NCBI GenBank assembly: GCA_964518955.1
Contig: CAZFHS010000029.1
Location: 15,963-79,962 of the forward strand
DNA: 64,000 nt
Source of the DNA: an uncultured Gemmatimonadaceae bacterium
Lineage (GTDB): Bacteria; Gemmatimonadota; Gemmatimonadetes; Gemmatimonadales; GWC2-71-9
Direction of reading: 5' to 3'
The stretch's first letter is position 1. Each line of letters starts with the position of its first letter. The notes beneath the pieces were generated by a model. That model had not been told where the DNA came from, searched no databases, and worked only from the letters and a program-made list of their open reading frames with translations. Shown in pieces: positions 13,303 to 41,455 of this stretch. The translations under genes were made by a program, and so were the position numbers.

Positions 13303-14103
13303 CTACCAGTCGGCGCGCGGCCCCTTGATATGCGGGATGGCCGTCTGCATCCATTCAACTGTTGCACTCGAATGGCATCCCGTTTCCGTGCCGTACTGAC
13401 CGCTGCACGATATGGGGCCGTTGTCCTCGACCTTGAAGTTGTGCAAACGTTCCACCAATCCGCTCTCGGTGACTTGATAGCCCGCCATGTGGCAATCGAC
13501 ACAGCGTAGCACAGCTGATGCCAGTAGCGAGTCTTTGGTGGGCACGGGGAAACCGTGGAACTCATTGTGGCAGTACTGGCACTGGGCGTTCATCTGGTTT
13601 GGATCTGACCTGTCGATGAAAGTGTAGCTCGCCGGGTCGCTACGGTCGGAGCCTGGCAGGAGATTGGTTACCAGCGATTCCTCGAGGCTGTCAGCCAGGC
13701 CAACCGGATGACATGCGCCACAAGTCACACCTTCCCAAGTACCCTTCGGAATCGGCGCGGCAGCCAAAGAATCTCTCGTAGCACCGGGGTTGGTAGGTGC
13801 GTGACACCAGGCGCATGCGGTGTTGACACGATCGTCATGACTCTGAGATCGCGAGTGCACGCTGGAGAGCCATCCTTTTCCTGTGGACTTCACCAAACCT
13901 GAAGACGTATCCACTCCCACTGCGCGCCGCTGAATGTCACCGCCATCTCCATGACAGGTTGCACACCGCTCCGCTTCAGCGTAGTCGTAGTGCTCGGGAG
14001 CGAGACTCGCGAGCGAAAAACCTGTCTGGTCTTGTTGACCTGATACAACGCAGCTCACAAAGCAGCCCAGCAGCAGCAAGTTCATCGCTACGATTTTACT
14101 CAT
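13303..14103 (-). CDS. pentahaem c-type cytochrome, secreted
   Basis: Start moved to ATG 14103 (MSKIVAMNLLLLGCFVSCVVSG signal peptide, SD GGAGGAG). Five CxxCH motifs: CATCH, CAWCH, CGACH, CQYCH, CVDCH. Confidence 0.75.
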   Translation of the reverse strand: MSKIVAMNLLLLGCFVSCVVSGQQDQTGFSLASLAPEHYDYAEAERCATCHGDGGDIQRRAVGVDTSSGLVKSTGKGWLSSVHSRSQSHDDRVNTACAWCHAPTNPGATRDSLAAAPIPKGTWEGVTCGACHPVGLADSLEESLVTNLLPGSDRSDPASYTFIDRSDPNQMNAQCQYCHNEFHGFPVPTKDSLLASAVLRCVDCHMAGYQVTESGLVERLHNFKVEDNGPISCSGQYGTETGCHSSATVEWMQTAIPHIKGPRADW

Positions 14104-16051
14104 TTTCTCCTCCGGGAAGACGAGCCTCAATCCAACTCTCAGCCTGCTCCACGGCCTGGGCAAACTGTTTGTCCGCACACATGACGTCGGCATACGACTC
14201 CACCGCCCTGTCCAGATCGTCCGACGTCCACACCGAGATGCCGTCGATCGTTTCCAATTCGTCAACAGAACCCGAATCGTTGAAATCGACCACGACCAGG
14301 GGTCTTCCCCCGAAGTCTCGCACACCGTCGAGCATTTCCGCCGATATCACCGGCTCCGAGTGATCGATGCCAAAGAACACAAAATCGGCATCGGCAATCG
14401 TCTCGATCACGTCACGCTCGGAATAGGAGTGCACCCTCAAGCGGGTCCCGTTGCCAATGGCATTGCGCAGCAATTTCATCTGCCCGTGATGATCTCGATA
14501 GACCAAAGTCATCTGCTGCCGCGACACCTTGAACCGATCTGCGAGCGTGAACAGCACCGAACGCGAAGTGGCAGATCCCCCGATGACGACATGCTTGCAC
14601 CGTTCGAGATCAGCTCCACTGAGATCGTGGACGCGAGAGAGTGCCGCAGCACAGAAACCGCGACTGAACTTGCCCCACGACGTCTTTTCGCGAACCTCCT
14701 CGGCCAAGGTGACGGCGCTATCTACCAACCCCGTTGCCTTCGCACCAGCCGTTCCTACCCGCTCGCCCATCCGACAGGAGGTTTGCAGCTGGGAGACAAC
14801 GTCCGTATCTCCAGGCAAGGCGCTGTTCAGACCGCAGGCGGTTCTCATCAGGTGATGCCAACCCTCGGCGCCAAAGAGGACGTTCACCTTCAGGCCCTCG
14901 GGTTCGGCACCGTATAGATGCTGCCGTATCTCTGCCACCGGCCATTCGTGGTCCGCTACGCCCTCGGCTTCCGAATGCCAACCGTAGAATTCTATCCTCT
15001 GACAAGTACTCCACACAAATGCCTCTTCGACGGGCGTTTCCTCCCTAACCCAATCCAAGAATGCTCGGAGTTCCTTTCTCGTCTTCTTGACCTCGCAGAA
15101 CACTCCAGACGGACTGTGAACCACATCGGGGCCATGTTGCGAACGGACCTTGCCCGCGACCGATGCACCGATCATAACCAGGGACCCAGGTGCCAGATCG
15201 ACTTCTTCCGAAGAACTTTTCGGCGCAAGAAGCGGGGCCGTCCCCTCCATCCCGAGTGCCACCGACCTTGGCCCCCGGACGGCAAGGTTCTTCACCGCCG
15301 TTATAAAGGGGCCGTAAGTGTCTAGCGCCGGGCCGACGAAGAGTTGAGCGCCAGGGCAGTGGCCGGCGAGTTGTTCGGGTGTCTCCCGCGACAAAGACGT
15401 CAGCGTCATGGGAATCAGAACAATGTTCTTCTCAGGCGAGCCAGCCAGTGCATTCAACCGACTCTCGAGAGCAGCACGAGAGTCATACACAACCGACGCA
15501 CGAGTGACAGGCCACCCGAGTCGTTCCAGCACAAGTGAAGCGGTGTGATCCACCTGCGCCTCGTACGCACCGTGTGCCCCCTCACCAACGTCTTCCACCT
15601 GCTGCGCACACAGCAAGAGCTGGGCATTTGACGGGTTGAGTTCGAGAGACGACGTGAATGACGCTATGAGGCGCGCCTGGGCGTTTACGTATCCGCCATC
15701 GTTGTACCAGGCGGTTCGCGTCGCCAAATCACGCGGCTCGCGCAATTCTCCCGCCACCCGATACACCTCGCGGAGAATCGTACCGCTGGTCGAAGGAGAG
15801 AACTGTGGGTACATCGGCAAGACTACCAGTTCCTCTACGCCGCGATCGATTTTGGCTATGGATTGCTGGATCGATGGCTCGCCATGCCGTAACGCGTGCA
15901 GCACCTGCCACCCGGCGGGCAGCTGGCATGCTGCCGCATATGCCTGAGCCTCCAAGATCTTGCCGATTTCACGCGCGACTGCCGGATCTTCGCTGCCGAG
16001 TGACGCCAACAGCAACGCGCTCTGGCGCCTGGCTCTTGCTCCGTTAGACAT
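14096..16051 (-). CDS. hemA: fusion protein: N-terminal ferrochelatase-like (class II chelatase, HemH-type) domain + C-terminal glutamyl-tRNA reductase (HemA)
   Basis: N-terminal part: ALLLASLGSEDP, VVLPMYPQFSPSTSGT and AWYNDGGYVNAQARLIA match HemH landmarks. C-terminal part: STCQRIEFYG (HemA catalytic Cys motif STCNR.E) followed by a Rossmann-like region and a dimerisation tail. Confidence 0.75.
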   Translation of the reverse strand: MSNGARARRQSALLLASLGSEDPAVAREIGKILEAQAYAAACQLPAGWQVLHALRHGEPSIQQSIAKIDRGVEELVVLPMYPQFSPSTSGTILREVYRVAGELREPRDLATRTAWYNDGGYVNAQARLIASFTSSLELNPSNAQLLLCAQQVEDVGEGAHGAYEAQVDHTASLVLERLGWPVTRASVVYDSRAALESRLNALAGSPEKNIVLIPMTLTSLSRETPEQLAGHCPGAQLFVGPALDTYGPFITAVKNLAVRGPRSVALGMEGTAPLLAPKSSSEEVDLAPGSLVMIGASVAGKVRSQHGPDVVHSPSGVFCEVKKTRKELRAFLDWVREETPVEEAFVWSTCQRIEFYGWHSEAEGVADHEWPVAEIRQHLYGAEPEGLKVNVLFGAEGWHHLMRTACGLNSALPGDTDVVSQLQTSCRMGERVGTAGAKATGLVDSAVTLAEEVREKTSWGKFSRGFCAAALSRVHDLSGADLERCKHVVIGGSATSRSVLFTLADRFKVSRQQMTLVYRDHHGQMKLLRNAIGNGTRLRVHSYSERDVIETIADADFVFFGIDHSEPVISAEMLDGVRDFGGRPLVVVDFNDSGSVDELETIDGISVWTSDDLDRAVESYADVMCADKQFAQAVEQAESWIEARLPGGENE

Positions 16052-16063
16052 GGCGGTCTGAGC

Positions 16064-16549
16064 TCAGGTCGACCCGGACTGGTCTTCCGACTCGCGATCA
16101 GGGTCCAAAAAGCCAGCGATGCGGTCGCGTGTGCGCCTGGCTTTTGCCGGATCACTGCCATCGGTGAACACCGCGACGGTGACGTCGGCCTCGCTCATGT
16201 GAAGCGCTCCGAATATCACCTGAGATCTTTCTGACGAAGACGCATCACACACCAGCACCCCGCGCTCGCTTGCACTCGATACAATTCTGGCATTGAGCGT
16301 TTTGTCGTCAGTTGCGGCAACAACCATAAAAACACCTTCGAGATGTTCGTCGCGGTACCGGTCTTGAATCCATCGAATGCCGTCGGAGTCAAGCTGATTG
16401 GACAGTGATTCAGAGACAATAGGAGAAACTACAGTCACCACTCCCCCGGCCGCGACGAGGTTCATGACCTTGCGCGACCCTATTGGCCCACCGCCAACAA
16501 CGAGGCAGCGTTTGCCCCGAACATCGAGGCCGACCGGGAGAAACCGCAG
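16064..16549 (-). CDS. sirC: precorrin-2 dehydrogenase / siroheme synthase N-terminal-domain protein (SirC-like)
   Basis: The track ORF starts at ATG 16465 (MNLVAAGGVVTVVSP). The same frame upstream reads LRFLPVGLDVRGKRCLVVGGGPIGSRKV, which is the NAD-binding GGGxxG loop. That frame is closed by TAG directly before CTG 16549, and GGAGG lies 5 nt upstream of the CTG. Motif VFMVVAATDD..LN also fits SirC/CysG-N. Confidence 0.7.
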   Translation of the reverse strand: MRFLPVGLDVRGKRCLVVGGGPIGSRKVMNLVAAGGVVTVVSPIVSESLSNQLDSDGIRWIQDRYRDEHLEGVFMVVAATDDKTLNARIVSSASERGVLVCDASSSERSQVIFGALHMSEADVTVAVFTDGSDPAKARRTRDRIAGFLDPDRESEDQSGST

Positions 16550-16574
16550 CTAAACCTCCGCTTTCGATCTACGC

Positions 16575-17021
16575 CTAGTGCCCTGCTGCTAGAATACCGC
16601 TGGCCGCCAGCACCAGAATCACGACCTCAGTAATCGCCATGATCACGTAGGCAGTTTGTTTCTTTCTAAGCAGCGTGGGAATGATCCCGGCGTAACAGAT
16701 AATCGTAACACCCGAAAGGACAGCAATTCCAATGAAGTTGGCAAAATCACCCTTCCCCAACACAGTCAACCATCCCCACCCCGTCACACCATGATCCCTA
16801 TGCAGGAAATTGTGATTGACTGCTTCAACATACTCGTGGACCGGCAACGCCCAGTATTTGGGTAATTCCTCAATAGGCACCGCAGGCGCCGTGATACCCA
16901 GCATATAGAGGGCAAAAGTCACGAAAAGGATAGCCAGCCCAATGTACATGCCGATTTCCAGGATCTTGGCGTAGAGGAGCTGCTCCTCGTTTGCCTCAGG
17001 GGTTCTTACGTCTTCTGTCAT
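16575..17021 (-). CDS. DUF1634 family membrane protein (usual partner of TauE/SafE permeases)
   Basis: 148 aa, 3-4 hydrophobic helices, immediately downstream of a DUF81/TauE gene. Family assignment from memory of this gene pairing. Confidence 0.6.
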   Translation of the reverse strand: MTEDVRTPEANEEQLLYAKILEIGMYIGLAILFVTFALYMLGITAPAVPIEELPKYWALPVHEYVEAVNHNFLHRDHGVTGWGWLTVLGKGDFANFIGIAVLSGVTIICYAGIIPTLLRKKQTAYVIMAITEVVILVLAASGILAAGH

Positions 17022-17040: not shown

Positions 17041-18030
17041 CTAGAAGAAGAACGGGAGGTTGAGGCCCTTTGTGATCGCCTTGGCACCCGCGAACAGAAG
17101 GAGACCGATCACTAGCCAGCGAACGAAGCTCGGCTTCGCAACCCTGAGAATTCGCACACCTATGAACGACCCAAGCATGATTCCGATTAGCGACGGAATT
17201 ACCATCATTGGAATCACGCACCCTTGATTGAGATACACCCAAGCCGCAGAAGTATCCGTTATCGAAAGGAGGAACTTGCTGGTCGCGACGCTGATCTTGA
17301 GCGGCGCTCCCATCACGAGATTCAGAACCGGCACGTTTGCCCAACCTGCACCCAAGCCAAACATGCCCGCCATGAGCCCGATGAAGATGAATAGGAACAG
17401 GCCTATCGGGGTACGATGAATCTTCCAGTCGACGTTCTTCCCAAGGCTGGCCTCAGTGTACACTCCGTATATGCCAAGCGCAGAGGAGAGCTTGTCCGCG
17501 ACGGGCACTTCTGGAAACTCAGATTTCTTGGCGGCGATCATCAGCGCCACTATACCGAGTATGGTTGCGCCGAGAGCGGTCTGAACCACGTTCGTGGGCA
17601 GAGCCAAACCAACCATTGCACCAATTATGGCGCACGTCGAAGCGATGAGCGCTACCGGCATCGCTAGTCGGAGACTTGCCAGGTTCATCTTCAGAAAGCC
17701 AGGCCCCGCAGCGAGCGCGCCACTCAAGGCAACCAACAAACCCGCGCCACGAACGAAATCGAGATGGAATGGGAAGAAACCGCTGACGATGGGGACAAAG
17801 AGGACTCCGCCGCCAACTCCACCCAACGCCGCCAATATCCCCATAACGAAAGTCAGTACCAACAAGATCAATGGCCATGCCCACCAAGCCATCTGATCTC
17901 CGCCCGTCATGACACCTGCTTCTTGCACCGCATGAAGGAGGGTCGGATGAGCTGCCAATGCCATGGTGACCACTGCGGCTACGCGAGTAAACATCAGAAA
18001 GCTGCGCATTCGCATCGTGTTGTCTTTCAT
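17041..18030 (-). CDS. TauE/SafE (DUF81) family sulfite/anion exporter-type permease
   Basis: 329 aa polytopic protein with the Gly-rich helices typical of the family (GGVGGGVLFVPI, GLGAGWANVPVLN). The ATG overlaps the dsrN stop (ATGA at 18027..18030). Confidence 0.8.
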   Translation of the reverse strand: MKDNTMRMRSFLMFTRVAAVVTMALAAHPTLLHAVQEAGVMTGGDQMAWWAWPLILLVLTFVMGILAALGGVGGGVLFVPIVSGFFPFHLDFVRGAGLLVALSGALAAGPGFLKMNLASLRLAMPVALIASTCAIIGAMVGLALPTNVVQTALGATILGIVALMIAAKKSEFPEVPVADKLSSALGIYGVYTEASLGKNVDWKIHRTPIGLFLFIFIGLMAGMFGLGAGWANVPVLNLVMGAPLKISVATSKFLLSITDTSAAWVYLNQGCVIPMMVIPSLIGIMLGSFIGVRILRVAKPSFVRWLVIGLLLFAGAKAITKGLNLPFFF

Positions 18031-19430
18031 GATTGAGGTTCTGTTTGTGCGCTGTTCTTGAAACGAACCGCAGCTTCAACGACGGCCGCTGCCCAGCTCT
18101 CAGTTCCCAAAGCGTGCACGTGAGTGTAGGAGGCTAGCACGTTGTAACGACATATGCCATCCCGTTCCCCGTCAAACCCAACACCGCGATGCACCTTGAA
18201 TGCAAACGTCACATCATCCAGGTCAACTGATTGCATATACGTGTAGTGAAACTCGTGCCCTCGCAGGGATTTTCCGACCGGAAAGAACGGATTTTTCGAT
18301 ATCGTTTCGACTTCAACATAGCCATGACCCTGCGGCCGTTTTTTGAATCCGTACGTTACGGGAAGCACGTTGGCCATGGGATACTCGTGCGACTCGAAAA
18401 TCAGTTTTTTCCCCAAGAACACTGCACCGCCACATTCGGCATAGACGGGCACACCTAGTTCGATCTTCTCTCGGACAGAACTCAGGAAGCTACCGTTCAC
18501 AGACAGTTCCGGAGCTAGAGTCTCGGGAAAGCCGCCACCAATATAGAGTCCATCGACATCGGGGAGTTCTTTGTCGGTGGTTGGCGAGATCTCCACGAGA
18601 TTCGCTCCCTCCCGTGCCAAACCCTCTAAGTTCTCCGGATAGTAGAACTGAAATGCCGCGTCACGGAACACGCCTATGTTCGCTCTCGCGGAATCACTCC
18701 GTTCAACCAGGACATTCGCGGTCGGCTCGGCTTCGAGCACGGGCGCTTCCTGCGCAACATGCCAAATCGCATCGAGATCCAGGTGCTTCTCTCCCACTTC
18801 TGCGACTTTCTGAATCGCAGCCTGCTTCTCGTCGTGCTCCTGAGGCGGAACTAGGCCGAGGTGTCTTTCTGGAAAGATCTCCTCTCGAATCCGCGGAATG
18901 ACCCCTAGGACAGGAATTTCGCAGACCTGCTCGACAGCGTCTCGTATGACGGTTTCATGACGCGAGCCAGCGATTTGATTGAGCACCGCACCTCTGATCT
19001 GCACTTTCGGATCCAGCTTCAAACAACCCAGTATCAAGGCCGCAATAGTCCGAGTCGATTTAGTGCAGTCTACCGCGAGCACGACTGGCGCCGACAACAG
19101 TTTTGCCAACTCGGCGCTGCTGTAGCTTCCCTCGGCATCCATGCCGTCGAACAAACCGCGGTTGCCCTCGATGACGGCTACGTCAGATTGTGCCGCCGCC
19201 GCACCGAACGAAGACAAAACGCCCTGCCGGGACATGAGGTACAGATCCATGTTCCGGCAGGGCTCACCTGCTGCGGCAGATAACCAGGCCGCGTCAATGT
19301 AATCGGGGCCCTTTTTGAAAGGAGCCACCTTCATACCGTTTTTTCGCCAAGCTGCAACCAAACCCAACGAGACCAGCGTTTTTCCGCTGCCTCCACGCAA
19401 CCCGGCTATGAGGACGCGGGGAAAACTCAG
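18027..19430 (-). CDS. dsrN: cobyrinic acid a,c-diamide synthase homologue (DsrN, putative siroheme amidase)
   Basis: CbiA/CobB landmarks: P-loop GGSGKT, and a C-terminal glutamine amidotransferase part (YAECGG). It sits directly after dsrL. The track start (TTG 19400) removes the beta-strand before the P-loop. The frame upstream reads SFPRVLIAGLRGGSGKT and is open only back to TAG 19446..19448. CTG 19430 has GGAG 7 nt upstream. Confidence 0.75.
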   Translation of the reverse strand: MSFPRVLIAGLRGGSGKTLVSLGLVAAWRKNGMKVAPFKKGPDYIDAAWLSAAAGEPCRNMDLYLMSRQGVLSSFGAAAAQSDVAVIEGNRGLFDGMDAEGSYSSAELAKLLSAPVVLAVDCTKSTRTIAALILGCLKLDPKVQIRGAVLNQIAGSRHETVIRDAVEQVCEIPVLGVIPRIREEIFPERHLGLVPPQEHDEKQAAIQKVAEVGEKHLDLDAIWHVAQEAPVLEAEPTANVLVERSDSARANIGVFRDAAFQFYYPENLEGLAREGANLVEISPTTDKELPDVDGLYIGGGFPETLAPELSVNGSFLSSVREKIELGVPVYAECGGAVFLGKKLIFESHEYPMANVLPVTYGFKKRPQGHGYVEVETISKNPFFPVGKSLRGHEFHYTYMQSVDLDDVTFAFKVHRGVGFDGERDGICRYNVLASYTHVHALGTESWAAAVVEAAVRFKNSAQTEPQS

Positions 19431-19434: not shown

Positions 19435-21117
19435 TCACTCCATATCTATGAAGCCGCAGGGGCATATTTCCGCACACTTCTTACAACCGGTGCAGTTGCC
19501 GAGCTTCCACCCGTAGAGAGTGCCTTTCTCCATCGGCTTCTCAATCGCCTGGTCCTGGCAGTACAACCAGCACTTTTCGCAGTCCATGCAATACCCGCAG
19601 CTCATGCACCGCTTGCTCTCTTCAATTGACTGCTCCTCGGTGAGCGCCAAATTCGCTTCTGCATCCATATTCGCGAAGCGCTCTTCGACCGAGAGCTTGC
19701 CTGCTTCGAGCCGATCAGCCTTTGGATAGTGATCGAGCTGCATACGATCGGTCTTGATTATCGGCTGACCGTTATCCTGCTTTTCCAGACTGCGGAACCT
19801 ACGGTCAATTGCCTCTGCAGCGTACCGGCCGTGCCCGATCGCGTCAGTCACCAGCGCGAGGTTTGTTGCATCGCCACCAGCCCAGACATTGTCGACTTTG
19901 GTCGACTCAAACTCGTCGTTCACCTTGATCCAGTCTCTGCCCTCGATGAGGGAATCGAGACCCATGAAGTCGGGTTCCTGACTGATCGCAGGGATGACCA
20001 TCGTAGCAGGGATCTCAAACTCAGACCCCTCCAAAGGCACCGGGCGCCTTCTGCCGGAGTCATCCGGCTCACCCAGTTCCATGCGGATGCACTGCATGCT
20101 CGTGATGTTGTTGCCGTCCTTGTTGAAACCGATGGGCGCGGCGAGATATTCCAGCTTTATGTCCTCTTCCTGCGCTTCCTCGATCTCTTCATCGATCGCG
20201 GGCATCTCTTTGATGGTACGGCGGTACAGGATCGTTGTTGTGGCGCCGAAACGTTTACAGATACGCGCGGCGTCGATGGCAGTGTCACCACCACCGACAA
20301 CGATGACGTTGTCTCCAACGTCTACAGTCTCACCGTGATGGACACGATTGAGGAACTCCACGCCCGACATGACGTTGTCCGCTTCCTCGCCCTCGACTCT
20401 GAGCTTCAAACCCTTCTCAGCACCGATTGCGACGAACACCGCCTGATACTCCGCACGCAGGTCGTCGAACGAAATGTCTTTGCCAACCCGAGTGTTCAGC
20501 TTCAGCTCAACACCGAGATCGACGATGTTCTGGATCTCTTTGTCGATGATGTCCGCAGGCAGCCTGTACCTCGGGATACCCCACAGCAGCATTCCGCCCG
20601 GCTTGTCAGCGGCCTCGAATACCGTAACCGAGTATCCGCGCCTCGCGAGTTGATACGCGCAAGAGAAACCTCCCGGGCCTCCACCTACAACGGCGACCTT
20701 CTCCGGGCGTTTCTCTTCGGTCATCATCTTCAACTTCAGGCCGTTGTTCAGCCCGAAGTCGCCAATAACACGCTCAACCTTGTTGATGCCTACAGCACCA
20801 TCGAGTTCGATTCTGTTGCAGCCAGTCTCACACGGGTGTGGACAAACGCGACCGCAGACGGAAGGAAACGGACTCGTGTCCGTGTAGCTCTCCCACGCTT
20901 CGGTGAAGGCCTGGTCTTTCGGCTTCTCGAGTCGCTCAGCCTGAGCGATAGTGGTCAGCCAGTCTCTGATGCGATTCCCACTGGGGCAGGCGTCTTGGCA
21001 CGGAGGTTTCTTGGTCACGTGCTTTGGTCTCAGTGGAGACTGTTCTCTGCCTCCACCGGAACTGGACGCGCTGTAATCTCGTTTCCGCTTCTTCTTCTTA
21101 GTTTTCTTTACAGCCAT
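19435..21117 (-). CDS. dsrL: NAD(P)H:acceptor oxidoreductase, GltD-like iron-sulfur flavoprotein with C-terminal ferredoxin domain (DsrL)
   Basis: N-terminal Fe-S motifs CQDACPSGN and CGRVCPHPCETGCNR. Two dinucleotide folds (VAVVGGGPGGFSCAY, VIVVGGGDTAIDAAR). C-terminal CMSCGYCMDCEKC...CTGCKKCAEICP. Position between dsrD and dsrN. Confidence 0.75.
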   Translation of the reverse strand: MAVKKTKKKKRKRDYSASSSGGGREQSPLRPKHVTKKPPCQDACPSGNRIRDWLTTIAQAERLEKPKDQAFTEAWESYTDTSPFPSVCGRVCPHPCETGCNRIELDGAVGINKVERVIGDFGLNNGLKLKMMTEEKRPEKVAVVGGGPGGFSCAYQLARRGYSVTVFEAADKPGGMLLWGIPRYRLPADIIDKEIQNIVDLGVELKLNTRVGKDISFDDLRAEYQAVFVAIGAEKGLKLRVEGEEADNVMSGVEFLNRVHHGETVDVGDNVIVVGGGDTAIDAARICKRFGATTTILYRRTIKEMPAIDEEIEEAQEEDIKLEYLAAPIGFNKDGNNITSMQCIRMELGEPDDSGRRRPVPLEGSEFEIPATMVIPAISQEPDFMGLDSLIEGRDWIKVNDEFESTKVDNVWAGGDATNLALVTDAIGHGRYAAEAIDRRFRSLEKQDNGQPIIKTDRMQLDHYPKADRLEAGKLSVEERFANMDAEANLALTEEQSIEESKRCMSCGYCMDCEKCWLYCQDQAIEKPMEKGTLYGWKLGNCTGCKKCAEICPCGFIDME

Positions 21118-21180: not shown

Positions 21181-21213
21181 TTTGAAAAGCCGACGGCTAT
21201 GTTAGCCGTCAGC
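21181..21213 (-). terminator. stem-loop plus U-tract at the end of dsrD (putative intrinsic terminator/attenuator before dsrL)
   Basis: The minus strand reads GCTGACGGCTA-ACA-TAGCCGTCGGC followed by TTTTCAAAATAAT. The stem is 11 bp with one G.U pair and includes the dsrD stop codon. Confidence 0.5.
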
Positions 21214-21459
21214 CCCTTCCGCTGCTCCCTCGGCATGAGGAAGCTCAATGAAGCTGCCACCAAAGTAGGTATACACACACCTACCGGAGTCCATGAGCGT
21301 GCGAATCGCAAGCTTACACTGCTTCTTGTCGACTCCATCGGCAGCATACTTCTGAATCATCGCCTTGGTCAAATCGCCGGCCTTGAACTTCTTCTTGCCT
21401 TGATACTCTTTGACCATCTCGAACATGGCGTCCGCAATTTCTTCTGGCGTGACGGCCAT
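21202..21459 (-). CDS. dsrD: DsrD (small winged-helix protein of reductive dsr operons)
   Basis: 85 aa, directly downstream of dsrB. Lys-rich KKKFKAGDL stretch and a C-terminal ...GRCVYTYFGGSFIEL pattern resembling the DsrD ...YWSSGSTTMY region. Confidence 0.7.
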   Translation of the reverse strand: MAVTPEEIADAMFEMVKEYQGKKKFKAGDLTKAMIQKYAADGVDKKQCKLAIRTLMDSGRCVYTYFGGSFIELPHAEGAAEGADG

Positions 21460-23950: not shown

Positions 23951-23952
23951 AC

Positions 23953-25113: not shown

Positions 25114-25154
25114 ATATCTACCTCTCCGTTATCACTATCTAACCCGACGCGGCG

Positions 25155-35167: not shown

Positions 35168-36436
35168 CTACTCCCCGCAACTCTGCAAGGCTTTCAAGGC
35201 AGCACCAGTAGCATCCCGCACACAAACCGCGACATCCACCGGCCGCTTGGCACATCCTGCGGCCAGCATCCCTGCCATGGGTTGTTCATTAACGAGAAAG
35301 CCGTGCTCGTCTCTTTCCAATCCGCCGCCGTTGTCGAAGTTGACCGGCGCTCCGGCTGGAACGAGACCCGTTGCCAACACAGCGAGATTGACTCTCTGCT
35401 CAATCCGCTCACCCGTCATCGTATCCTCGGCCTCGAGCACCACATCGCCGCTAGCCGAGTCTTCCGTGACCTTCGCGACCTTGCCTTTGACCAGATGCAG
35501 CTTCTCGTCTTCCTGGCACATCTGATAGAAGTCGTCCAGTCGGCCTGGCGCGCGAATGTCGATGTAAAAGACGAAGATATCTGCTTCCGGATATTGCTCA
35601 CGCACGTACCGCGTTTGTTTCAGCGATCCCATGCAGCAAACACCGGAGCAATGCTTCAAGTAGTTCTCGTCACGCGATCCCGCACATTGTACGAACGCTA
35701 CCGACTCGACTTCCTTGTCGTCCGAAGGTCGCGTAATCTTGCCACCCGTTGGCCCGTCAATAGAGGCGAGCCGTTCCATCATCAAGTTTGTGATCACGTT
35801 CTTGTGTTTGCCGAAGCCGAGGCCTTCGAACAAAGTCGCGTCGGGTTGATCCCAGCCCGTGGCCCAGATTACCGATTGAACTTCCAGTTCAATCGTTTCG
35901 GGGTTCATGTCGAGTTCGATCGCGTCGTACTTGCACGCGTCGACACACTTACCGCATTCGGCACCTGGGCAGACACTTTCGTCAATCGTGTACTGAACCG
36001 GGTAGGCCATTTTATAAGGCAGGTAAATTGCCTTCGTCGTTCCGATCCCACAGTCGAATTCGTTGGGTCGTTCTACCGGGCAAGCCTCCACACATTCGCC
36101 GCATGCCGTACATTTGCTGGTGACGCGTCCCGGTTGCTGCTTGACCGTCACCTGGTAGTGACCCGCTTCGCCAGCAATCTTCTCGACCTCAGAGAGCGTC
36201 AGGCATCGGATGCTCGAGCTGGTCCTGATGCGCCGAAGGTTGATCTCCAGACCGCAAGACGGTGGGCAAAGCTTTGGGAAATATTCGTTCATCTGGGCAA
36301 CGCGACCGCCCATGTATGGATTTTTCTCCACCAATACGACGTCGCAGCCAGCCTCGGAAGCTTCAATCGCGGCTGTAATACCGCTTATCCCGCCTCCGAC
36401 CACGAGCACCGTGCCCCGCTTTCCGTTTCCACTCAT
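35168..36436 (-). CDS. qmoA: QmoA (HdrA-like flavoprotein)
   Basis: VVGGGISGITAA FAD fold, and CTACGECVEACP / CGKCVDAC ferredoxin motifs. 422 aa. Confidence 0.9.
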   Translation of the reverse strand: MSGNGKRGTVLVVGGGISGITAAIEASEAGCDVVLVEKNPYMGGRVAQMNEYFPKLCPPSCGLEINLRRIRTSSSIRCLTLSEVEKIAGEAGHYQVTVKQQPGRVTSKCTACGECVEACPVERPNEFDCGIGTTKAIYLPYKMAYPVQYTIDESVCPGAECGKCVDACKYDAIELDMNPETIELEVQSVIWATGWDQPDATLFEGLGFGKHKNVITNLMMERLASIDGPTGGKITRPSDDKEVESVAFVQCAGSRDENYLKHCSGVCCMGSLKQTRYVREQYPEADIFVFYIDIRAPGRLDDFYQMCQEDEKLHLVKGKVAKVTEDSASGDVVLEAEDTMTGERIEQRVNLAVLATGLVPAGAPVNFDNGGGLERDEHGFLVNEQPMAGMLAAGCAKRPVDVAVCVRDATGAALKALQSCGE

Positions 36437-37335
36437 TATTGATCCTCTTCGGGAGTCGTTTCTGCAGACTCCTTGTCGAACACTTTCCGCTTGTCGAGGC
36501 TTCCTTTGAAAGCCTCGGCGACATCGGGCTTCACTCGCATCGTAGCTTCACCGAACACACTGAACCGGATCCAGTGGTACGCGAATCGCAGTAGTTCCTC
36601 ATCGTCCGTCCGCATTCCTTCGACGAACTCTTCATCGATCTCGAACCGATCTAGGAGCGTGCTCTCGAATACGAATTCACGGAACTTGTCCAGGTCATAA
36701 CATGCCGTGAACAGCATGTGCATTCTCTCTGGCGAAAGCGCCGCATCACCTTGCTCGAAAAACTGGTGGAGCGTCAGTTCTTTGTATCCGTCACCCCAAC
36801 GGTCGTACTCGTAGATGCCTTGGTCTTCGAGCCATTGACGAACGGTTATCTCGGTGTCCTCCGCAAACCCCTGGCACACATCTTCCCTCAGTAGGAAGTA
36901 GAACTTCTCTCCGCCCCATCCGTCCGGCGTGTCCTTTTGAGCCGCCATGCCCAGCGGGTACATGCGACACGGCCAAGGTCGGTCCGAGTAGACGCCGCAG
37001 CCTTCGTCCGTCAAGAATTGGCATGACTTCGTCTCATCGTCGTTCATTCTCAGCACGACGACGGGCGTCTTCATATCCTTTTGAACCGGGAGCAGAGCGT
37101 ATCTGTCGAGGAAATCGCTCGACTTCATACCGAGGCGTTTCTTCAAACGCAGAACATCGTATGGCGACAGAAAGATGTTCACATCATGGCAGCATCGATT
37201 GAAGCAGGGAACGCCGGGATGACATCCAAACTTGAAGGTGTCATCGAGACCTAGCCTGGGGGTGTTTTCTAGGATCTTCTCTTCGAGATCGAGCTTCTGC
37301 TCTTCTGAATCGGTATTGCGTTCGTTGTCACTCAC
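36436..37335 (-). CDS. YkgJ/UPF0153-type cysteine-cluster protein (COG0727-like), function unknown
   Basis: CHPGVPCFNRCCHD plus CQFLTDEGCGVYSDRPWPCRMYP, the family signature. GTG start overlapping the stop of the upstream small ORF (GTGA). Its own TAA overlaps the qmoA ATG (TAATG). Confidence 0.7.
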   Translation of the reverse strand: MSDNERNTDSEEQKLDLEEKILENTPRLGLDDTFKFGCHPGVPCFNRCCHDVNIFLSPYDVLRLKKRLGMKSSDFLDRYALLPVQKDMKTPVVVLRMNDDETKSCQFLTDEGCGVYSDRPWPCRMYPLGMAAQKDTPDGWGGEKFYFLLREDVCQGFAEDTEITVRQWLEDQGIYEYDRWGDGYKELTLHQFFEQGDAALSPERMHMLFTACYDLDKFREFVFESTLLDRFEIDEEFVEGMRTDDEELLRFAYHWIRFSVFGEATMRVKPDVAEAFKGSLDKRKVFDKESAETTPEEDQ

Positions 37336-37616
37336 GGGGCGTCTCCTTCGGACTCATCCACGATCATCTCGCGTGTCGCGGCATCCGACCATACCGGTAG
37401 AGGTGAAGAAGCGCCTGTAGAAGGGTTGACTGCGAATCGATACGAAGCGTTTTGTTTGAACTGCTCCTTCATCCAACTCCAGCCGTTCTTGTAATAAGAA
37501 CAGTCATCATTGAAGCAAACAAAAAAGAACTCCTCATCCCATGAAGCATCGACGGGCACACGCCATTTGCTCAGGCGTGTATCGCAGTGAGGGCAGGTTC
37601 GCGAAAACTCTTTCAT
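37332..37616 (-). CDS. small zinc-ribbon-like protein (94 aa), function unknown
   Basis: CPHC...(22 aa)...CFNDDC four-Cys arrangement. Trp-rich (WSWMKEQF). Translationally coupled to the YkgJ-like gene. Confidence 0.5.
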   Translation of the reverse strand: MKEFSRTCPHCDTRLSKWRVPVDASWDEEFFFVCFNDDCSYYKNGWSWMKEQFKQNASYRFAVNPSTGASSPLPVWSDAATREMIVDESEGDAP

Positions 37617-37739
37617 TCGGTTCCTCGGTCGATCATCGTTGATTCATGCCGGCCTGGAAACCGTCCCTCGCCCAGCTGCGAAAGTCCGAATGCCTTTCGA
37701 GACAAAAAAGTTTCAAGAGGAGTCCAGGATGGGACCTGA

Positions 37740-37760
37740 GGGCACCGCGGCGCGGTGCCC
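37740..37760 (-). other. strong GC stem-loop downstream of aprA (mRNA-stabilising or terminator-like element)
   Basis: GGGCACCGCG-G-CGCGGTGCCC, a nearly perfect 10-bp inverted repeat 30 nt after the aprA stop. A T6 run follows about 30 nt further downstream on the minus strand (37704..37709). Confidence 0.4.
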
Positions 37761-37790
37761 CAAGATCCCAAGTACCATGAAGCCGTTTGG

Positions 37791-39683
37791 TTAGACAGAG
37801 ATGTACTTAACCGGCTTCTTCATCATCTCCCACTCACCCGTGTTCTTGTCATACTTGCAGTTGCAGAAAGCCAACCAATTGTCATTGTCGATGGACGGCT
37901 TGTCAGCCCTGAAGTAATAACCGGGCCAGCGGGTTTCCTCGCGGAACAGGATCGAGTGCACGTGTGCGTATGCCTGATACATGCGGTGGACGTTCTCCCA
38001 ACAACGCATCAGTTCGTGCAAGCTATCCGCAGCTTGATTCTCTGCGTCTTCTTTCAAGAAGTCGAGCAGCTCCAAGCCCTTCTCCAGCATCTTGTCGCTG
38101 GTCATGAACTGAGCTGAAACGCCACCCGCATACTCGTCCATGATCTTCTGGAGACGATACATGAACTGCTTGGCACGGATGTAGTTCGGGTTGATCTCAG
38201 GATCCGTCGTGGCACCCTTGTGTTCTTCGAACATGTTCATCGGTTTCAAGATCTTCGCGGTCAGATCGTCGATCTGGGCCTGGTCCACAGTCGGTGCATC
38301 GTTGTTGTCAACGATGTACGCGCAAGCGGCCTTGGCTGCGATACGACCTTCGGTGAACGAGCCCGAGGAGAACTTGTGACTGGAAGCGCCGGAGGCGTCG
38401 CCAGCTGCAAACATGCCCGATACGGTGGTCATGTTCGGGTAACCCCAGAAGTACTCGTCCTTGGTCTCGCCGGTCTGCAAGTCTTCGGGACCGGAGACCC
38501 ATGCGCCTGAAGCACCGGAGTGCGAACCGATGAAGTACGGATCGCAAGCCATGATCTCAGACGGCTTCTTCTCAGGCTCGACGTTCGAGGCCGCCCACAA
38601 AATGGCCTGTGAAATCGTCATGTCCAGGAAGTCTTCCCATGCCTCAGCCTCGAGTTCCTTCAACTTCTTCTTCGCGGCCTTCTCGTCGGGCGCCTTCTCC
38701 GCGATCCTCTGGATGGCTTCGGCGGTCTGCATGTAAATCGGCGCCTTACCTTCCATGACGTCGAGCATCATGAGCCAGTTACGGATGTTAGCCGGACGCG
38801 GCTTGACCTTGCCATAGGGCTCCCACTTGTCGAGCTCGGGCTCACGCTCTTGCATGTAGTTGCCGCCCTGCGCGTTTGTCGCAACCGACTTGAAGAGCAA
38901 GAACCACGCACCGACCGGGCCGTATGCATCCTTGAACCGGACAGGAATGAAGCGAACTTCCTGACAGGTCATCTCAGCACCAGCATACAGGGTGAAGAAT
39001 GCGCTGGAAGCAGAGTTGAACGGCGGGTACCAGGAGCGGCCGAAGCCCTCACCAGTGGAACGCGGCTTGAAGACGTGCACCGCACCACCCAGGATCACCA
39101 TAGTCGCCTTCGCCTTGAACACATACACTTTGTTCTCACGGACGCTGAAGCCGATCGCGCCGGCGCAATTGTCACCATCCATCAGCGGGTGCGTCAGGAA
39201 GACGCGCTCGAAGTATTCGGCGCCGGCATCGGCAAGCGCGTTCTTCGCTGCCTCAGCCACGATGACTTTGTAGGATTCACCATTGATCATGAGCTGCCAA
39301 CGGCCCTCATGAACGTAGTTGCCATCCGCATCCGTCCAGATCGGAAGGCCCCACTTTTCAAACAGGTGGACCGTACCGTCAACATGACGGGCGATGTTGG
39401 CCACCAAGTCCTCACGAGTGATGCCCATGAGGTCGTTGCGGACGTAGTCGCAATAGTCCTTCAACGTGTTGTTACCGCTATTCAGATCCACATACTGGTT
39501 GATGGCCGAAAGACCCATCGCAACCGCACCAGAGCGATCCATCGCCGCTTTGTCGACTACGGTGACCTTCAAGCCGGCCTTTTTGGCCCAATAGGAGGCT
39601 TCAACCGCTGCTCCGCAGGCGCCCATTCCGCCGCCGCAGATCAGCAGATCAGTCTCGACCGTTACAGTTTCAAAATCCGCCAT
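37791..39683 (-). CDS. aprA: adenylylsulfate (APS) reductase alpha subunit
   Basis: FAD motif LLICGGGMGACGAA. 630 aa with the C-terminal ...WLAFCNCKYD... region typical of AprA. Follows aprB. Confidence 0.95.
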   Translation of the reverse strand: MADFETVTVETDLLICGGGMGACGAAVEASYWAKKAGLKVTVVDKAAMDRSGAVAMGLSAINQYVDLNSGNNTLKDYCDYVRNDLMGITREDLVANIARHVDGTVHLFEKWGLPIWTDADGNYVHEGRWQLMINGESYKVIVAEAAKNALADAGAEYFERVFLTHPLMDGDNCAGAIGFSVRENKVYVFKAKATMVILGGAVHVFKPRSTGEGFGRSWYPPFNSASSAFFTLYAGAEMTCQEVRFIPVRFKDAYGPVGAWFLLFKSVATNAQGGNYMQEREPELDKWEPYGKVKPRPANIRNWLMMLDVMEGKAPIYMQTAEAIQRIAEKAPDEKAAKKKLKELEAEAWEDFLDMTISQAILWAASNVEPEKKPSEIMACDPYFIGSHSGASGAWVSGPEDLQTGETKDEYFWGYPNMTTVSGMFAAGDASGASSHKFSSGSFTEGRIAAKAACAYIVDNNDAPTVDQAQIDDLTAKILKPMNMFEEHKGATTDPEINPNYIRAKQFMYRLQKIMDEYAGGVSAQFMTSDKMLEKGLELLDFLKEDAENQAADSLHELMRCWENVHRMYQAYAHVHSILFREETRWPGYYFRADKPSIDNDNWLAFCNCKYDKNTGEWEMMKKPVKYISV

Positions 39684-39749: not shown

Positions 39750-40217
39750 CTAGAGCGTGGGGACCTTGTCCATCTTCACTGGGCCACGCTCGGTGTTGAG
39801 CACCTCAGGCTCGCACATGAGTGTGGGGCTCTTCAGGTCGTCGTCTGCAGTGGGGTAATGATCGAACGGCTGCGCTTTGCCTTCTTCGACGCCTTTGCGA
39901 ATGGGGAACTTGAACCGCTTCGGCTTGATTTCCTTGCTCCGGAACTGAACGGTCCACATGATGCTGTCCGTGCTGCGCATCGCGGTGACGCTTGCGCCCA
40001 TCGGCACGAAGTCCTGATAGCCGCGCACCTCGATCGCCTGCGTGGGGCAGATCTTGACGCAGCTGTAGCACTCCCAGCACATCTGCGGGTCCTGGTTGTA
40101 CGCCTTCATGATCTCTTTGTCCAAAACCATGAGGTCGTTGGGACAAATGTACTGGCAGGCAGTCTTGTCGAGTGCCTTACAGCCGTCACATTTGTCCGGA
40201 ATTACGTAACTTGGCAT
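39750..40217 (-). CDS. aprB: adenylylsulfate (APS) reductase beta subunit
   Basis: MPSYVIPDKCDGCK...CQYICPND...CWECYSCVKICP, plus the AprB-specific C-terminal tail. Confidence 0.95.
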   Translation of the reverse strand: MPSYVIPDKCDGCKALDKTACQYICPNDLMVLDKEIMKAYNQDPQMCWECYSCVKICPTQAIEVRGYQDFVPMGASVTAMRSTDSIMWTVQFRSKEIKPKRFKFPIRKGVEEGKAQPFDHYPTADDDLKSPTLMCEPEVLNTERGPVKMDKVPTL

Positions 40218-40543
40218 CTTCCTTCTTCCTTTCGTAGGACGTTCTCGAGAACTTGACCTAACCGGTTACTGAAAACCCTGCACCTATCTTAGAAAACACC
40301 TTCTCCGTACTCAGACGTTGAGACAAAACTCCCCGCATCGGCATGCATGCGCGGCTCGCTCTCGCGAGTAAGACTGCTGGAAACCGGGAGAAACTCAGCG
40401 ATATGTGAAGTCATGCTCTCACGGCAGCGATCCACAGCGCATCTTGCCCCGCTCGACGCGCGCACGTTGAAAACACCAAACGCGTTGCTGTTTCGCTTCC
40501 GTATCACTTCACATCCTACCCAGAGCAAACCCAAACTGCGGGC

Positions 40544-40566
40544 TTGCGAGATGTTTTTCACGATTT
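40544..40566. promoter_or_regulatory. copy 1 of a 23-nt box (TTGCGAGATGTTTTTCACGATTT), candidate Rex-type operator
   Basis: Core CGAGAT-N5-TCACG has the 5-6-5 geometry of TGTGA-N6-TCACA. Located in the aprB upstream region. Confidence 0.45.
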
Positions 40567-40621
40567 GGCGTCACCGCCCACTTCACCCACCTAAAACCCG
40601 TTGAACCCACCCGTGGCGACG

Positions 40622-40643
40622 TTACGAGATTTTTATCACGATT
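40622..40643. promoter_or_regulatory. copy 2 of the box (TTACGAGATTTTTATCACGATT)
   Basis: Identical core to copy 4. Shares the extended left flank CGACGTTA with copy 4. Confidence 0.5.
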
Positions 40644-40756
40644 AAATGTCGCGAGGGGTACCGATGAACGCAAGCCCTTGAAATCAGTGCACTTTGCCGA
40701 CTTCTGCGGCCCCCAAAAAACCCTCAAATCAATGCAAGCACACTCATACCAATAGG

Positions 40757-40779
40757 TTACGAGATTTTTGTCACGATTT
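40757..40779. promoter_or_regulatory. copy 3 of the box (TTACGAGATTTTTGTCACGATTT)
   Basis: One substitution relative to copy 2. Lies 44 nt downstream of the rex stop. Confidence 0.5.
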
Positions 40780-40822
40780 CGGCTGCGTTGGCACATACGG
40801 CCAGCACCACCATTGGACGCGG

Positions 40823-41455
40823 TCATTCTTCTTCCAGCTGCCTCAGGTAGTGCGCGATCTCGGCAAACCCGAGCGAAATGTGCTCTTCACGTACCAGAAC
40901 TCCAGGTGGCACGAACAGCCTGATCGGCGAGAAATTCCAGATCGCCTTGATGCCCATGTCGACCAGACGATCGGCAATGTGCTGCGAGACCGTCGCCGGC
41001 GTTGTAATAATGGCGAGCTGGATTGCGTGCTTCTCGATGAACGGCTTCAGGGCCTGCATCGGCTTGATTGTCGCACCTGCAACCTTGCGACCCTTCAGTT
41101 TCTTGTCGTTGTCGAACGCAGCAACGATTTCGAGTCCATACCGGGAAAAACCGTGGTAGGTCAGAAGAGCGCTGCCAAGACGGCCTGCACCGACCAGTAC
41201 GGCGTCGACCTCTCGATCGAAGCCAAGAGCGGCCCTAATCGACCGGCATACTTCACACCTCTCAAAGCCGACACGACCCATACCCACGATACCAATGGAA
41301 CCGAGGTCCTTGCGTACTTGCGTCGGGTCGATGTCCAGCGCCTCTGCAATCTCGGCGCTGGTAACTGTCGGTCCCTTCCCTTTTGGGTTCGAATCGGAAA
41401 GAAGCCGATAATACCGCATCAAGCGCTCTACGACCAATCGTCGTAACCGAGCCAA
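40823..41455 (-). CDS. rex: redox-sensing transcriptional repressor Rex
   Basis: N-terminal winged helix RLMRYYRLL...TSAEIAEALDIDPTQVRKDLGSIG. NADH Rossmann motif AVLVGAGRLGSALL. 210 aa. Confidence 0.9.
   Translation of the reverse strand: MARLRRLVVERLMRYYRLLSDSNPKGKGPTVTSAEIAEALDIDPTQVRKDLGSIGIVGMGRVGFERCEVCRSIRAALGFDREVDAVLVGAGRLGSALLTYHGFSRYGLEIVAAFDNDKKLKGRKVAGATIKPMQALKPFIEKHAIQLAIITTPATVSQHIADRLVDMGIKAIWNFSPIRLFVPPGVLVREEHISLGFAEIAHYLRQLEEE

Follow-up and report, generated by a model that had tools for sequence, protein, structure and literature searches.

Which organism carries the genes of sulfate respiration as one unbroken block, and did that block arrive in its genome recently? 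These questions are raised by a 64,000-nucleotide stretch of contig CAZFHS010000029.1, referred to below as the window, by which the whole of the analysed stretch is meant. Sulfate respiration mineralises a large share of the organic carbon of the seabed, and many of the dsrAB lineages found in the environment are uncultured. In the window, the map of open reading frames (ORFs) and the family scans reveal a minus-strand run of genes that extends unbroken for 28 kb (13303-41455), from rex, the first gene, to the gene for a pentahaem c-type cytochrome, the last. This array is read here, with a probability of roughly 0.7, as a chromosomal sulfate-respiration 'supercluster' of an uncultured member of the Gemmatimonadota, belonging to the DsrAB lineage of the marine fosmids (Mussmann et al. 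2005) and of the metagenomic bin SG8-17 (Baker et al. 2015).

Gene content of the array

Genes were identified from Pfam domains and from NCBIfam equivalog models, the latter read against the curated score cut-offs of NCBI. The array holds 27 supported genes, in the order rex, aprB, aprA, an Ogr/Delta-like zinc-finger gene, a CxxCxxCC-domain gene, qmoA, qmoB, qmoC, sat, an OsmC-like gene, dsrC, dsrT, dsrM, dsrK, dsrJ, dsrO, dsrP, dsrA, dsrB, a DsrD-like gene, dsrL, dsrN, a TauE gene, a gene for a 148-aa membrane protein, sirC, a chelatase::hemA fusion and the cytochrome gene. An initial annotation of this DNA had described a co-directional array with these limits and had named its genes in an order which the ORF map and the domain and family matches bear out. 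Its count of about 30 genes was too high, as two ORFs between rex and aprB are non-coding, and its list passed over the zinc-finger and CxxCxxCC genes between aprA and qmoA, the OsmC-like gene after sat and the 148-aa gene after tauE. It had also described many junctions as overlapping or nearly abutting, which is roughly right: neighbouring genes overlap by 1-8 nt at six junctions and lie 1-4 nt apart at four, and the distance is 11-174 nt at all others. The apr, qmo, sat, dsr and siroheme genes are contiguous on one fragment and, judged by these family assignments, the array encodes the complete sulfate-respiration pathway together with most of the siroheme cofactor supply.

Curated cut-offs were exceeded by both subunits of adenosine 5'-phosphosulfate (APS) reductase, AprB (39750-40217; TIGR02060, score 190, cut-off 136) and AprA (37791-39683; TIGR02061, 875 against 642), by QmoC of the quinone-interacting membrane oxidoreductase (31650-32876; NF038018, 391 against 300), by the ATP sulfurylase Sat (30389-31588; TIGR00339, 378 against 323), and by DsrA (22618-23835; TIGR02064, 574 against 393) and DsrB (21471-22550; TIGR02066, 500 against 342). 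The same holds for all five subunits of the membrane electron-transfer complex (dsrMKJOP, 23953-28988), with scores and cut-offs of 467/300 for DsrM, 712/400 for DsrK, 157/100 for DsrJ, 289/200 for DsrO and 421/350 for DsrP; DsrJ carries three CXXCH haem motifs. Codon bias is strong in aprBA, the GC content at third codon positions (GC3) being 0.81 in aprB and 0.74 in aprA. A search for DsrA homologues found that the exact 405-aa product is already on record. The genes qmoA (35168-36436) and qmoB (32911-35163) were named from their HdrA-like/FlpD architecture and their position, dsrC (29610-29927) from its Pfam DsrC domain, and dsrT (29011-29562) from an RsbRD_N domain and its place before dsrM. 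The C-terminus of DsrC (...GACKVAGLPKPTGCV) retains both conserved cysteines, which are 10 residues apart, the second being the penultimate residue.

Three further genes recognised by Pfam are interspersed among these. The Ogr/Delta-like zinc-finger gene (37332-37616) and the CxxCxxCC-domain gene (36436-37335) are kept as a pair between aprA and qmoA in loci of Gemmatimonadota, Planctomycetota, Acidobacteriota and Ignavibacteria, and are probably accessory to the Apr/Qmo module. The OsmC-like gene (29992-30387; Pfam OsmC) follows sat.

Downstream of dsrB, at a distance of 11 nt, lies the DsrD-like gene (21202-21459), whose 85-aa product has a winged-helix fold; the gene is kept at this position, that of dsrD, in 65 loci. 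The dsrL gene that follows (19435-21117; Pfam Fer4_20, Pyr_redox_2 and Fer4_21) is of type 2, its product having two-[4Fe-4S] ferredoxin domains at both the N- and the C-terminus, Rossmann domains for FAD and NAD(P), and a YRR motif. Read against the criteria in PMC7596348, its sequence shows this motif as LYRRT together with an S-G-N-R ligand pattern at the N-terminal cluster; YRR and Ser/Arg cluster ligands are reported there for the NADP(H)-specific DsrL-2 that is paired with reductive DsrAB (Loffler et al. 2020). The next gene, dsrN (18027-19400), encodes a homologue of siroheme amidase and was recognised by CobB-like models.

After dsrN come a gene for a TauE/SafE-family anion permease (17041-18030; Pfam TauE) and that of the 148-aa membrane protein (16575-17021), a pair which is kept near dsr or apr genes in related loci. 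The precorrin-2 dehydrogenase gene sirC, equivalent to dsrV (16064-16550; Pfam NAD_binding_7), had been named correctly but was probably called too short. The in-frame stretch upstream of the called start, LRFLPVGLDVRGKRCLVVGGG, is present in 16 relatives, where it begins M-R/K-F/Y-L-P (with ATG or a Leu codon), and in the window this extension (16466-16550) begins with a CTG that immediately follows an in-frame TAG and is preceded by GGAGG at a distance of 5 nt. The 28 additional residues restore a GGGxxG NAD-binding motif, and the CTG at 16550 is the probable start. The gene that had been given as hemA does encode glutamyl-tRNA reductase, fused in this case to a HemH-like class II chelatase domain (14096-16051; 651 aa; Pfam Ferrochelatase, GlutR_N and Shikimate_DH). 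The fusion is uninterrupted in five relatives (loci L007, L008, L009, L010 and L028; 611-665 aa) and may connect the opening step of siroheme supply with the final one. The cytochrome gene (13303-14103) encodes 266 aa with a signal peptide and five CXXCH motifs; it is called at the same length in independent assemblies, and among relatives it has a downstream counterpart in L007 and L008 alone, the two that are nearest. Cofactor supply does not end at 41455, where the initial annotation had closed it, as a cbiX-type chelatase gene (41596-42021; Pfam CbiX) and a cobA/hemD fusion (42034-43554; Pfam TP_methylase and HEM4) continue divergently on the plus strand, and both are linked to dsrN and sirC in many relatives.

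A scheme of how these products would act together was drawn from the established roles of their families. Sat would activate sulfate to APS, AprBA would reduce APS to sulfite with menaquinol electrons passed on by QmoABC, DsrAB would reduce sulfite on DsrC, a step which the DsrD-like protein probably activates, and DsrMKJOP would regenerate DsrC at the membrane, with the type-2 DsrL providing an NADPH route to DsrAB. Siroheme would be made by HemA, CobA/HemD, SirC and a chelatase (either CbiX or the HemH-like domain) and amidated by DsrN, and the TauE permease with its partner protein would move a sulfur anion across the membrane. The gene set would probably operate in the sulfate-reducing direction.

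Conserved order, host and descent

The proteins of the window were mapped onto 80 genome loci and onto 45 environmental contigs centred on qmoA. The order qmoC-sat-osmC-dsrC-dsrT-dsrMKJOP-dsrAB-D-L-N, often continued by tauE, the 148-aa gene, sirC, cbiX and cobA/hemD, was found in dozens of Gemmatimonadota metagenome-assembled genomes (MAGs) from the Gemmatimonadales and Longimicrobiales, with contigs of 803 kb and 316 kb among them, and also in Planctomycetota (Pirellulales, Phycisphaerales and Planctomycetaceae), including contigs of 672, 243 and 160 kb. Nine environmental contigs carry aprBA-ogr-CxxC-qmoABC-sat-osmC-dsrC-dsrT-dsrM... without interruption, two of them with rex included, and rex-aprBA-qmoABC-sat is contiguous in several more. 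In some related contigs (L095, L098 and L123) the interval between qmoC and sat holds three additional genes that resemble dsrJ, dsrO and dsrP (23-41% identical). Acidobacteriota, Zixibacteria, Ignavibacteria and Elusimicrobiota have another order, dsrAB-D-N/L-C-T-MKJOP, an arrangement that is described in PMC10504309. A comparison with public dsrAB genomes had been proposed as a check along with the initial annotation; the same order recurs in Gemmatimonadota and Planctomycetota and is not unique to the window. The arrangement is the norm for its DsrAB lineage and is not rare.

Because the window contains no tRNA or ribosomal marker genes (tRNA scan and Rfam scan), its host was inferred from the relatives of DsrA and of an S9 peptidase encoded in the flank, a protein unconnected with sulfur. 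The DsrA loci most similar to that of the window belong to Gemmatimonadota MAGs (91%, 89% and 83% identity), and Planctomycetota come next at 74-81%. Six of the eight named matches of the S9 peptidase are likewise from Gemmatimonadota, among them a 5.5-Mb chromosome (CP070666) and 'Gemmatimonas sp. SG8_17' (78%); the other two are from Rhodothermales and Proteobacteria, at 67-70%. Besides this peptidase, which has a TolB-like propeller, the flanks encode a Gfo/Idh/MocA dehydrogenase and a DUF1080 (3-keto-disaccharide hydrolase) protein, annotations that were already correct in the first description according to domain scans of the flank genes. They had been taken there as pointing to an uncultured or non-canonical lineage, which agrees with the Gemmatimonadota affiliation of the nearest DsrA loci and of the S9 peptidase relatives. 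By these two proteins the host is a member of the Gemmatimonadota. Three contigs (47,745 bp, 100,611 bp and 5.51 Mb) seemingly, to judge by their matching lengths, carry homologues of both, at identities of 85, 80 and 77% for the S9 peptidase and 93, 89 and 82% for DsrA; the parallel fall of the two series suggests that flank and cluster diverged together.

Trees were built by neighbour-joining with 100 bootstraps. The first DsrAB tree contained an artefact clade, made up of loci without dsrB for which a DsrA cross-match had been used; this clade was ignored, and another tree was made from seven proteins after filtering by identity. By DsrAB, the window joins L007 and L008 (100% support). The Gemmatimonadota clade to which these three belong includes two sequences of Planctomycetota as well, paired with 96% support within a node of 100%, and a third Planctomycetota sequence is sister to a second Gemmatimonadota clade. 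The seven-protein concatenate (2712 columns) recovers a group of Gemmatimonadota plus Planctomycetota on a long stem, with Planctomycetota nested in the diversity of Gemmatimonadota and with deep internal nodes at 17-38% bootstrap.

Two types of sat, approximately 45% identical to each other, occupy the same slot of the collinear cluster in loci L007-L052. Type A is present in the window, in L007, L008 and L010 and in Planctomycetota, and type B in L011, L013 and L019, which by DsrAB are the closest relatives of the window, L007, L008 and L010. For this slot the phylogeny of sat disagrees with that of dsr, a pattern that indicates replacement of the sat module in place. Two closed chromosomes carry fragments that look like scars of the break-up or decay of the cluster. 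In CP070666 (Gemmatimonadota; L009, 9393-9929) half of a dsrP gene precedes dsrABDLN-sirC-hemHA-cbiX-cobA/hemD, and in CP070685 (Phycisphaerales; L020, 11302-11934) dsrOP-dsrA is followed by a truncated dsrB and unrelated genes.

The collinear order, the interleaved trees, the exchange of sat and these scars support an old en-bloc exchange between phyla, followed by vertical descent, local recombination and decay. Within this Gemmatimonadota lineage the block would have been inherited vertically, the same block having earlier passed between Gemmatimonadota and Planctomycetota, and modules such as sat would have been replaced where they stood. Concerted horizontal transfer, which the initial annotation had brought up from earlier work, is therefore upheld as block transfer between phyla, given the shared order on long contigs and the interleaved trees, and is not upheld as a recent acquisition in this genome. 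The more specific proposal, to which we give a little less than an even chance, is that a block of approximately 30 kb moved whole between Gemmatimonadota, Planctomycetota and probably Latescibacterota at least twice, exchanged modules later and is now breaking up.

Candidate regulatory sites and neighbouring genes

The gene at the head of the array, rex (40823-41455), has the Rex architecture of PF06971 (Put_DNA-bind_N) and PF02629 (CoA_binding), and lies directly upstream of aprB in 12 environmental contigs. It is separated from aprB by a non-coding spacer of 605 nt (40218-40822), and a gap of 245-800 nt likewise separates the two genes in related contigs. Two ORFs here, 40509-40826 (105 aa) and 40289-40561 (90 aa), were rejected as genes; they have neither domains nor homologues in 130 related loci, and their GC content is flat by codon position (0.49/0.54/0.52 and 0.54/0.52/0.58), in contrast to the low GC at second and high GC at third positions of real neighbouring genes.

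A 16-nt motif, CGTGA-N6-TCTCG on the coding strand and CGAGAW-N5-TCACG on the plus strand, has five exact copies in the 64-kb window, all of which fall within approximately 1 kb (40547-41582). Three are located in the rex-aprB spacer (40547-40562, 40625-40640 and 40760-40775) and two around the putative rex promoter (41500-41515 and 41567-41582). The best promoter-like site, TTGACT-16-TAGAAT, is in the divergent rex/cbiX spacer, and the region taken to be the rex promoter (41500-41582, minus strand) consists of a sigma-70-like site (41559-41532) flanked by the two motif copies. When one mismatch is allowed the motif has 13 matches, versus 3.9 ± 2.1 in shuffled sequences. Ten related contigs (L093, L094, L098, L101, L107, L108, L112, L113, L114 and L123), of which two are probably the same sequence and some have no adjacent rex, also carry it ahead of aprB, at a distance of 120-600 nt, and it is absent upstream of the five aprB genes examined from Acidobacteriota, Ignavibacteria and Deferrimicrobiaceae. 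The core of the motif, GTGA...TC.C, resembles Rex-box half-sites. With CGTGA-N6-TCTCG as a lineage-specific operator, Rex would probably tie the expression of aprBA and of its own gene to the NADH/NAD+ ratio. In Desulfovibrio vulgaris, Rex is said to repress sat.

The array is probably transcribed as several units and not as one operon, because of two hairpins within it and the gaps between its genes. The segment downstream of aprA contains a stem-loop (37730-37770, minus strand) with a hairpin of approximately 20 bp; a 111-nt segment folds at -46.8 kcal/mol (z = -4.3) and 0 of 200 shuffles fold as well, making it a probable terminator, attenuator or mRNA stabiliser. After dsrP there is a hairpin resembling an intrinsic terminator (23933-23953, minus strand), in which a 9-bp stem with six GC pairs is followed by CTGTTTTTTC. 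Gaps of 61-174 nt precede aprB, aprA, ogr, sat, dsrC, dsrA, dsrB, dsrL and sirC. Scans for sigma-70 promoters and for terminators gave counts at or below shuffle expectation, for which reason only individual sites in intergenic gaps were used, and an Rfam scan of the whole window returned no matches. The likely units would be rex; aprBA; ogr-CxxC-qmoABC; sat-osmC; dsrC; dsrT-MKJOP; dsrABD; a unit that begins dsrL-N-tauE; and sirC-hemHA-cyt.

Beyond the cytochrome gene, on the same strand, are a gene for a pyridoxal phosphate (PLP)-dependent, cysteine-synthase-like enzyme (11271-12422; Pfam PALP) and four subunit genes of an NAD(P)-linked [NiFe] hydrogenase or sulfhydrogenase (7162-11172), which match NCBIfam sulfhydrogenase subunit models with scores below the cut-offs. 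By their proximity, the hydrogenase-like operon and the PLP gene may form a module for electron input or sulfide handling. At the end of the array (12652-13080, plus strand) a 142-aa protein with RsbRD_N and HisK_N domains, and so of the domain family of DsrT, is encoded; its homologue in L007 is 64% identical.

On the other side, 10 kb from the cluster, a membrane transporter of the YeiH type is encoded (PF03601; 51290-52894, plus strand). This is the family which we take to be the 'putative sulfate exporter family transporter' of NCBI. Homologues lie directly beside dsrA, dsrL or qmoC in seven related loci (L058, L064, L066, L067, L075, L084 and L086), and the protein is put forward as a candidate to transport sulfate or sulfite in this pathway. 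Three tandem repeats of 60 nt (45339-45529; 83-100% identical) are present inside a 527-aa ORF with a C-terminal VKOR domain (44618-46201), the neighbours of which encode a DUF4405 protein, a CGGC-domain protein, two Fe-S P-loop ATPases and an ARMT1-like protein.

Alternative readings and relation to known systems

Several points weigh against reading the array as a sulfate-reducing Gemmatimonadota supercluster of the fosmid lineage with a history of block exchange and its own redox operator. The placement in the fosmid clade is indirect, through Baker et al. (2015). The trees from which the number and direction of transfers would be read are neighbour-joining only, with weak key nodes for the seven proteins. 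Taxon labels of the MAGs come from binning, and the one closed Planctomycetota chromosome, CP070685, holds only a decayed remnant. The canonical Rex box TTGTGAA-N4-TTCACAA has 3 matches in the window (at most 3 mismatches) versus 2.0 expected, none of them at a promoter; as the canonical box is not enriched and only half-sites are alike, Rex control of aprBA is put forward as a hypothesis, and the motif as a candidate operator which might, by a guess from proximity and partial similarity, belong to Rex. The DsrD-like protein has no Pfam or NCBIfam match, nor has any of 21 members of its family even at E<=1. Furthermore, the direction in which such a pathway runs is not readable from genes alone.

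The small protein at the DsrD position was examined by several routes. Its family is labelled 'hypothetical protein' in databases, a phmmer search gave no sequence match in the PDB, a profile hidden Markov model of 65 family members did not match a presumed D. vulgaris DsrD sequence, and an hhalign comparison with that sequence was not significant. An AlphaFold model from the single sequence was too poor to use (predicted local distance difference test, pLDDT, 68) and was remade with an alignment (pLDDT 86.7), giving an H-H-H-beta-hairpin topology, that is, three helices and a beta-hairpin wing. In Foldseek this model matches DsrD (1wq2) with template-modelling scores of 0.60/0.76 and a root-mean-square deviation of 2.6 Å, and many other winged helices (Z-alpha and Fur among them) match equally well. 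Identity to the proteins that occupy the place of DsrD in the Acidobacteriota loci L083 and L056 is 52-61%, and Hausmann et al. (2018; PMC6018796) annotated DsrD in acidobacterial MAGs of their own. For the DsrD of A. fulgidus, stimulation of sulfite reduction by DsrAB has been assayed (PMC8794893). The dsrD of the initial annotation thus agrees with DsrD in fold and position and not in sequence; resting on fold, position and homology to the acidobacterial proteins, the assignment is given here as DsrD-like.

As organisms with reductive-type genes can oxidise or disproportionate sulfur (PMC6018796, PMC10591310), some weight is due to the possibility that the same gene set runs mainly in reverse, in sulfide or sulfur oxidation or in disproportionation, the Gemmatimonadota host being facultatively aerobic, with Desulfurivibrio or cable bacteria as parallels. 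The presence of dsrL, long taken as a marker of sulfur oxidisers (PMC6018796), would fit this, as would the adjoining hydrogenase-like operon, the failure of the DsrD-like protein in DsrD sequence models and recent surveys in which Gemmatimonadota MAGs are placed mostly among sulfur oxidisers (PMC12345210). The DsrL of the window, however, carries YRR and an Arg as cluster ligand, both of which are reported for DsrL-2 paired with reductive DsrAB, a winged-helix protein does occupy the DsrD position, and it has been proposed that DsrD and DsrL-2C beside reductive DsrAB indicate the reductive direction (PMC10591310). Both dsrT and qmoC are present, domain and family scans of the window genes found no dsrEFH, and DsrA is 42% identical to the oxidative-type rDsrA of phages compared with 64-92% to reductive-type relatives. 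Reverse operation is consequently considered unlikely, although it is the alternative to which we would pay most attention.

A recently acquired mobile genomic island is less probable still. It would account for a whole pathway lying in one block and for the same block in another phylum, and the tetranucleotide distance between cluster and flanks does rank second among 32 circular-shift partitions. Set against this are a GC content of 0.54-0.59 across the window and a tetranucleotide correlation between cluster and flanks of 0.95, the small shift fitting the strong codon bias of aprBA; the compositional difference from the flanks, for which a check had been suggested, gave no sign of recent acquisition. 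The lack of an integrase, a tRNA or a direct-repeat boundary, remarked on in the initial annotation, was confirmed by the tRNA scan, by a repeat search that found neither direct nor inverted repeats flanking 13-43 kb and by domain scans in which no flank gene had an integrase-like domain. Among the plasmids of PLSDB none has a gene for a DsrA homologue, in phages the only form is the oxidative rdsrA (42% identity), and flank and cluster diverge in parallel in what seem to be the same related contigs. Taken together, composition, boundaries and relatives indicate that the array is not a recent import into this genome. That the clustering is an artefact of assembly or binning, through a chimeric contig or mislabelled MAGs, can hardly be credited, even though the source and nearly all relatives are metagenome assemblies whose taxon labels depend on binning. 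The sequence of the window translates identically across its overlap with independent JGI and ENA assemblies, one of which crosses the junction of cluster and flank, with proteins and gene order 99-100% identical. The order recurs in contigs of 243-803 kb, and closed chromosomes of Gemmatimonadota and Phycisphaerales hold, respectively, the dsrABDLN-siroheme half and a dsrOP-dsrA remnant. The order shared with relatives and the matches in independent assemblies argue that the contig is not chimeric, and an inherited, chromosomal supercluster of sulfate respiration is the reading we retain.

The marine-sediment fosmids of Mussmann and co-workers from 2005 are reportedly ws39f7, ws7f8 and hr42c9, with DsrAB records CAJ31162/3 and CAJ31214/3 and a DsrAB clade called 'DSR-J', and the abstract of that work is said to place siroheme-synthesis and conserved hypothetical genes in the cluster as well. 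The clustering of sulfate-reduction genes on fosmids from uncultured prokaryotes was cited as support for a 'metabolic island' by Strittmatter et al. (2009; PMC2702500), who state explicitly that the same genes are scattered around the chromosome in sequenced sulfate reducers, so that the initial annotation was right to contrast the array with separate loci in model organisms. Bin SG8-17 of the Gemmatimonadetes has a complete set of sulfate-reduction genes, with dsrAB on a 9.6-kb contig and apr, sat and dsrC on other contigs; its dsrAB falls in the clade of the Mussmann fosmids, an uncultured lineage for which concerted horizontal gene transfer was hypothesised (Baker et al. 2015; PMC4411801), and the finding is repeated by Wasmund et al. 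(2017). The parallel with the fosmids drawn in the initial annotation holds and, through SG8-17, is closer than the 'comparable' clustering claimed there. Genes for DsrL are listed in Gemmatimonadetes, in Planctomycetes and, as a dsrL-related gene, in fosmids by Loffler et al. (2020). Neither Gemmatimonadota nor Planctomycetota is named in the text of a 2023 census that covers 950 genomes with dsrAB, and a 2024 survey of Phycisphaerae notes only that dsrAB is present in two genomes. A search of open-access text found neither the chelatase::HemA fusion nor the operator motif described, and likewise no account of a gene order shared across phyla or of the exchange of sat types. The array was accurately described, and its type of cluster has been in the literature since 2005 for the fosmids and since 2015 for the link to Gemmatimonadota.

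For one dsrAB lineage the window provides a contiguous reference in which catalytic, membrane, regulatory and cofactor genes stand together with host flanks, allowing the firm assignment of this lineage to the Gemmatimonadota, and the 'metabolic island' hypothesis can be checked against real genomes instead of 40-kb fosmids. The known biochemistry of the pathway is unchanged by it. Experimental handles are offered by the divergent DsrD, the chelatase::HemA fusion, the two conserved genes between aprA and qmoA and the candidate operator before aprBA, and comparative evidence for block transfer between Gemmatimonadota and Planctomycetota is opened up. If the block did move whole, no concrete example of the 'metabolic island' long postulated for sulfate respiration would be clearer, there would be a large guild of sulfate reducers in two phyla beyond those discussed in the 2023 census, and CGTGA-N6-TCTCG would be a new redox switch on APS reductase.

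As in the Rex regulons of anaerobes, a gene of Rex architecture heads the array and a partly palindromic, AT-centred repeat is present at the rex and aprBA promoters; unlike there, the motif is not the canonical box, is mostly in one orientation and is confined to the rex-aprBA region, with no copy in front of sat or dsr. With sulfate reducers of the Desulfovibrio or Desulfobacterium type the array shares Sat, AprBA-QmoABC, DsrABC(D) and DsrMKJOP, and the adjacency of aprBA and qmoABC is known there (PMC3333476), whereas in those organisms the genes are scattered (PMC2702500), dsrL is lacking and DsrD is recognised by sequence models.

The clusters of Acidobacteriota (PMC6018796; loci L056, L059, L063 and L083), of which the full set on one scaffold of MAG SbA2 was described by Hausmann et al. 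(2018), have the same inventory, including dsrD, dsrL, dsrN, dsrT, sirC (dsrV), cobA (dsrWa) and syntenic unknown genes, and likewise keep aprBA-ogr-CxxC-qmoAB. They differ in their order, dsrAB-D-L/N-C-T-MKJOP with apr-qmo divergent upstream, and their proteins are 50-73% identical and form a separate clade. Bin SG8-17 is alike in phylum, in its complete gene set and in the S9 peptidase homologue, which is 78% identical; its genes are on separate short contigs, whereas those of the window form one 28-kb stretch. The fosmids of 2005 resemble the window in having the sulfate-reduction genes clustered on one fragment; in the window the cluster is accompanied by chromosomal flanks of 13 kb and 22 kb, with which the host can be assigned, and recent import can be argued against.

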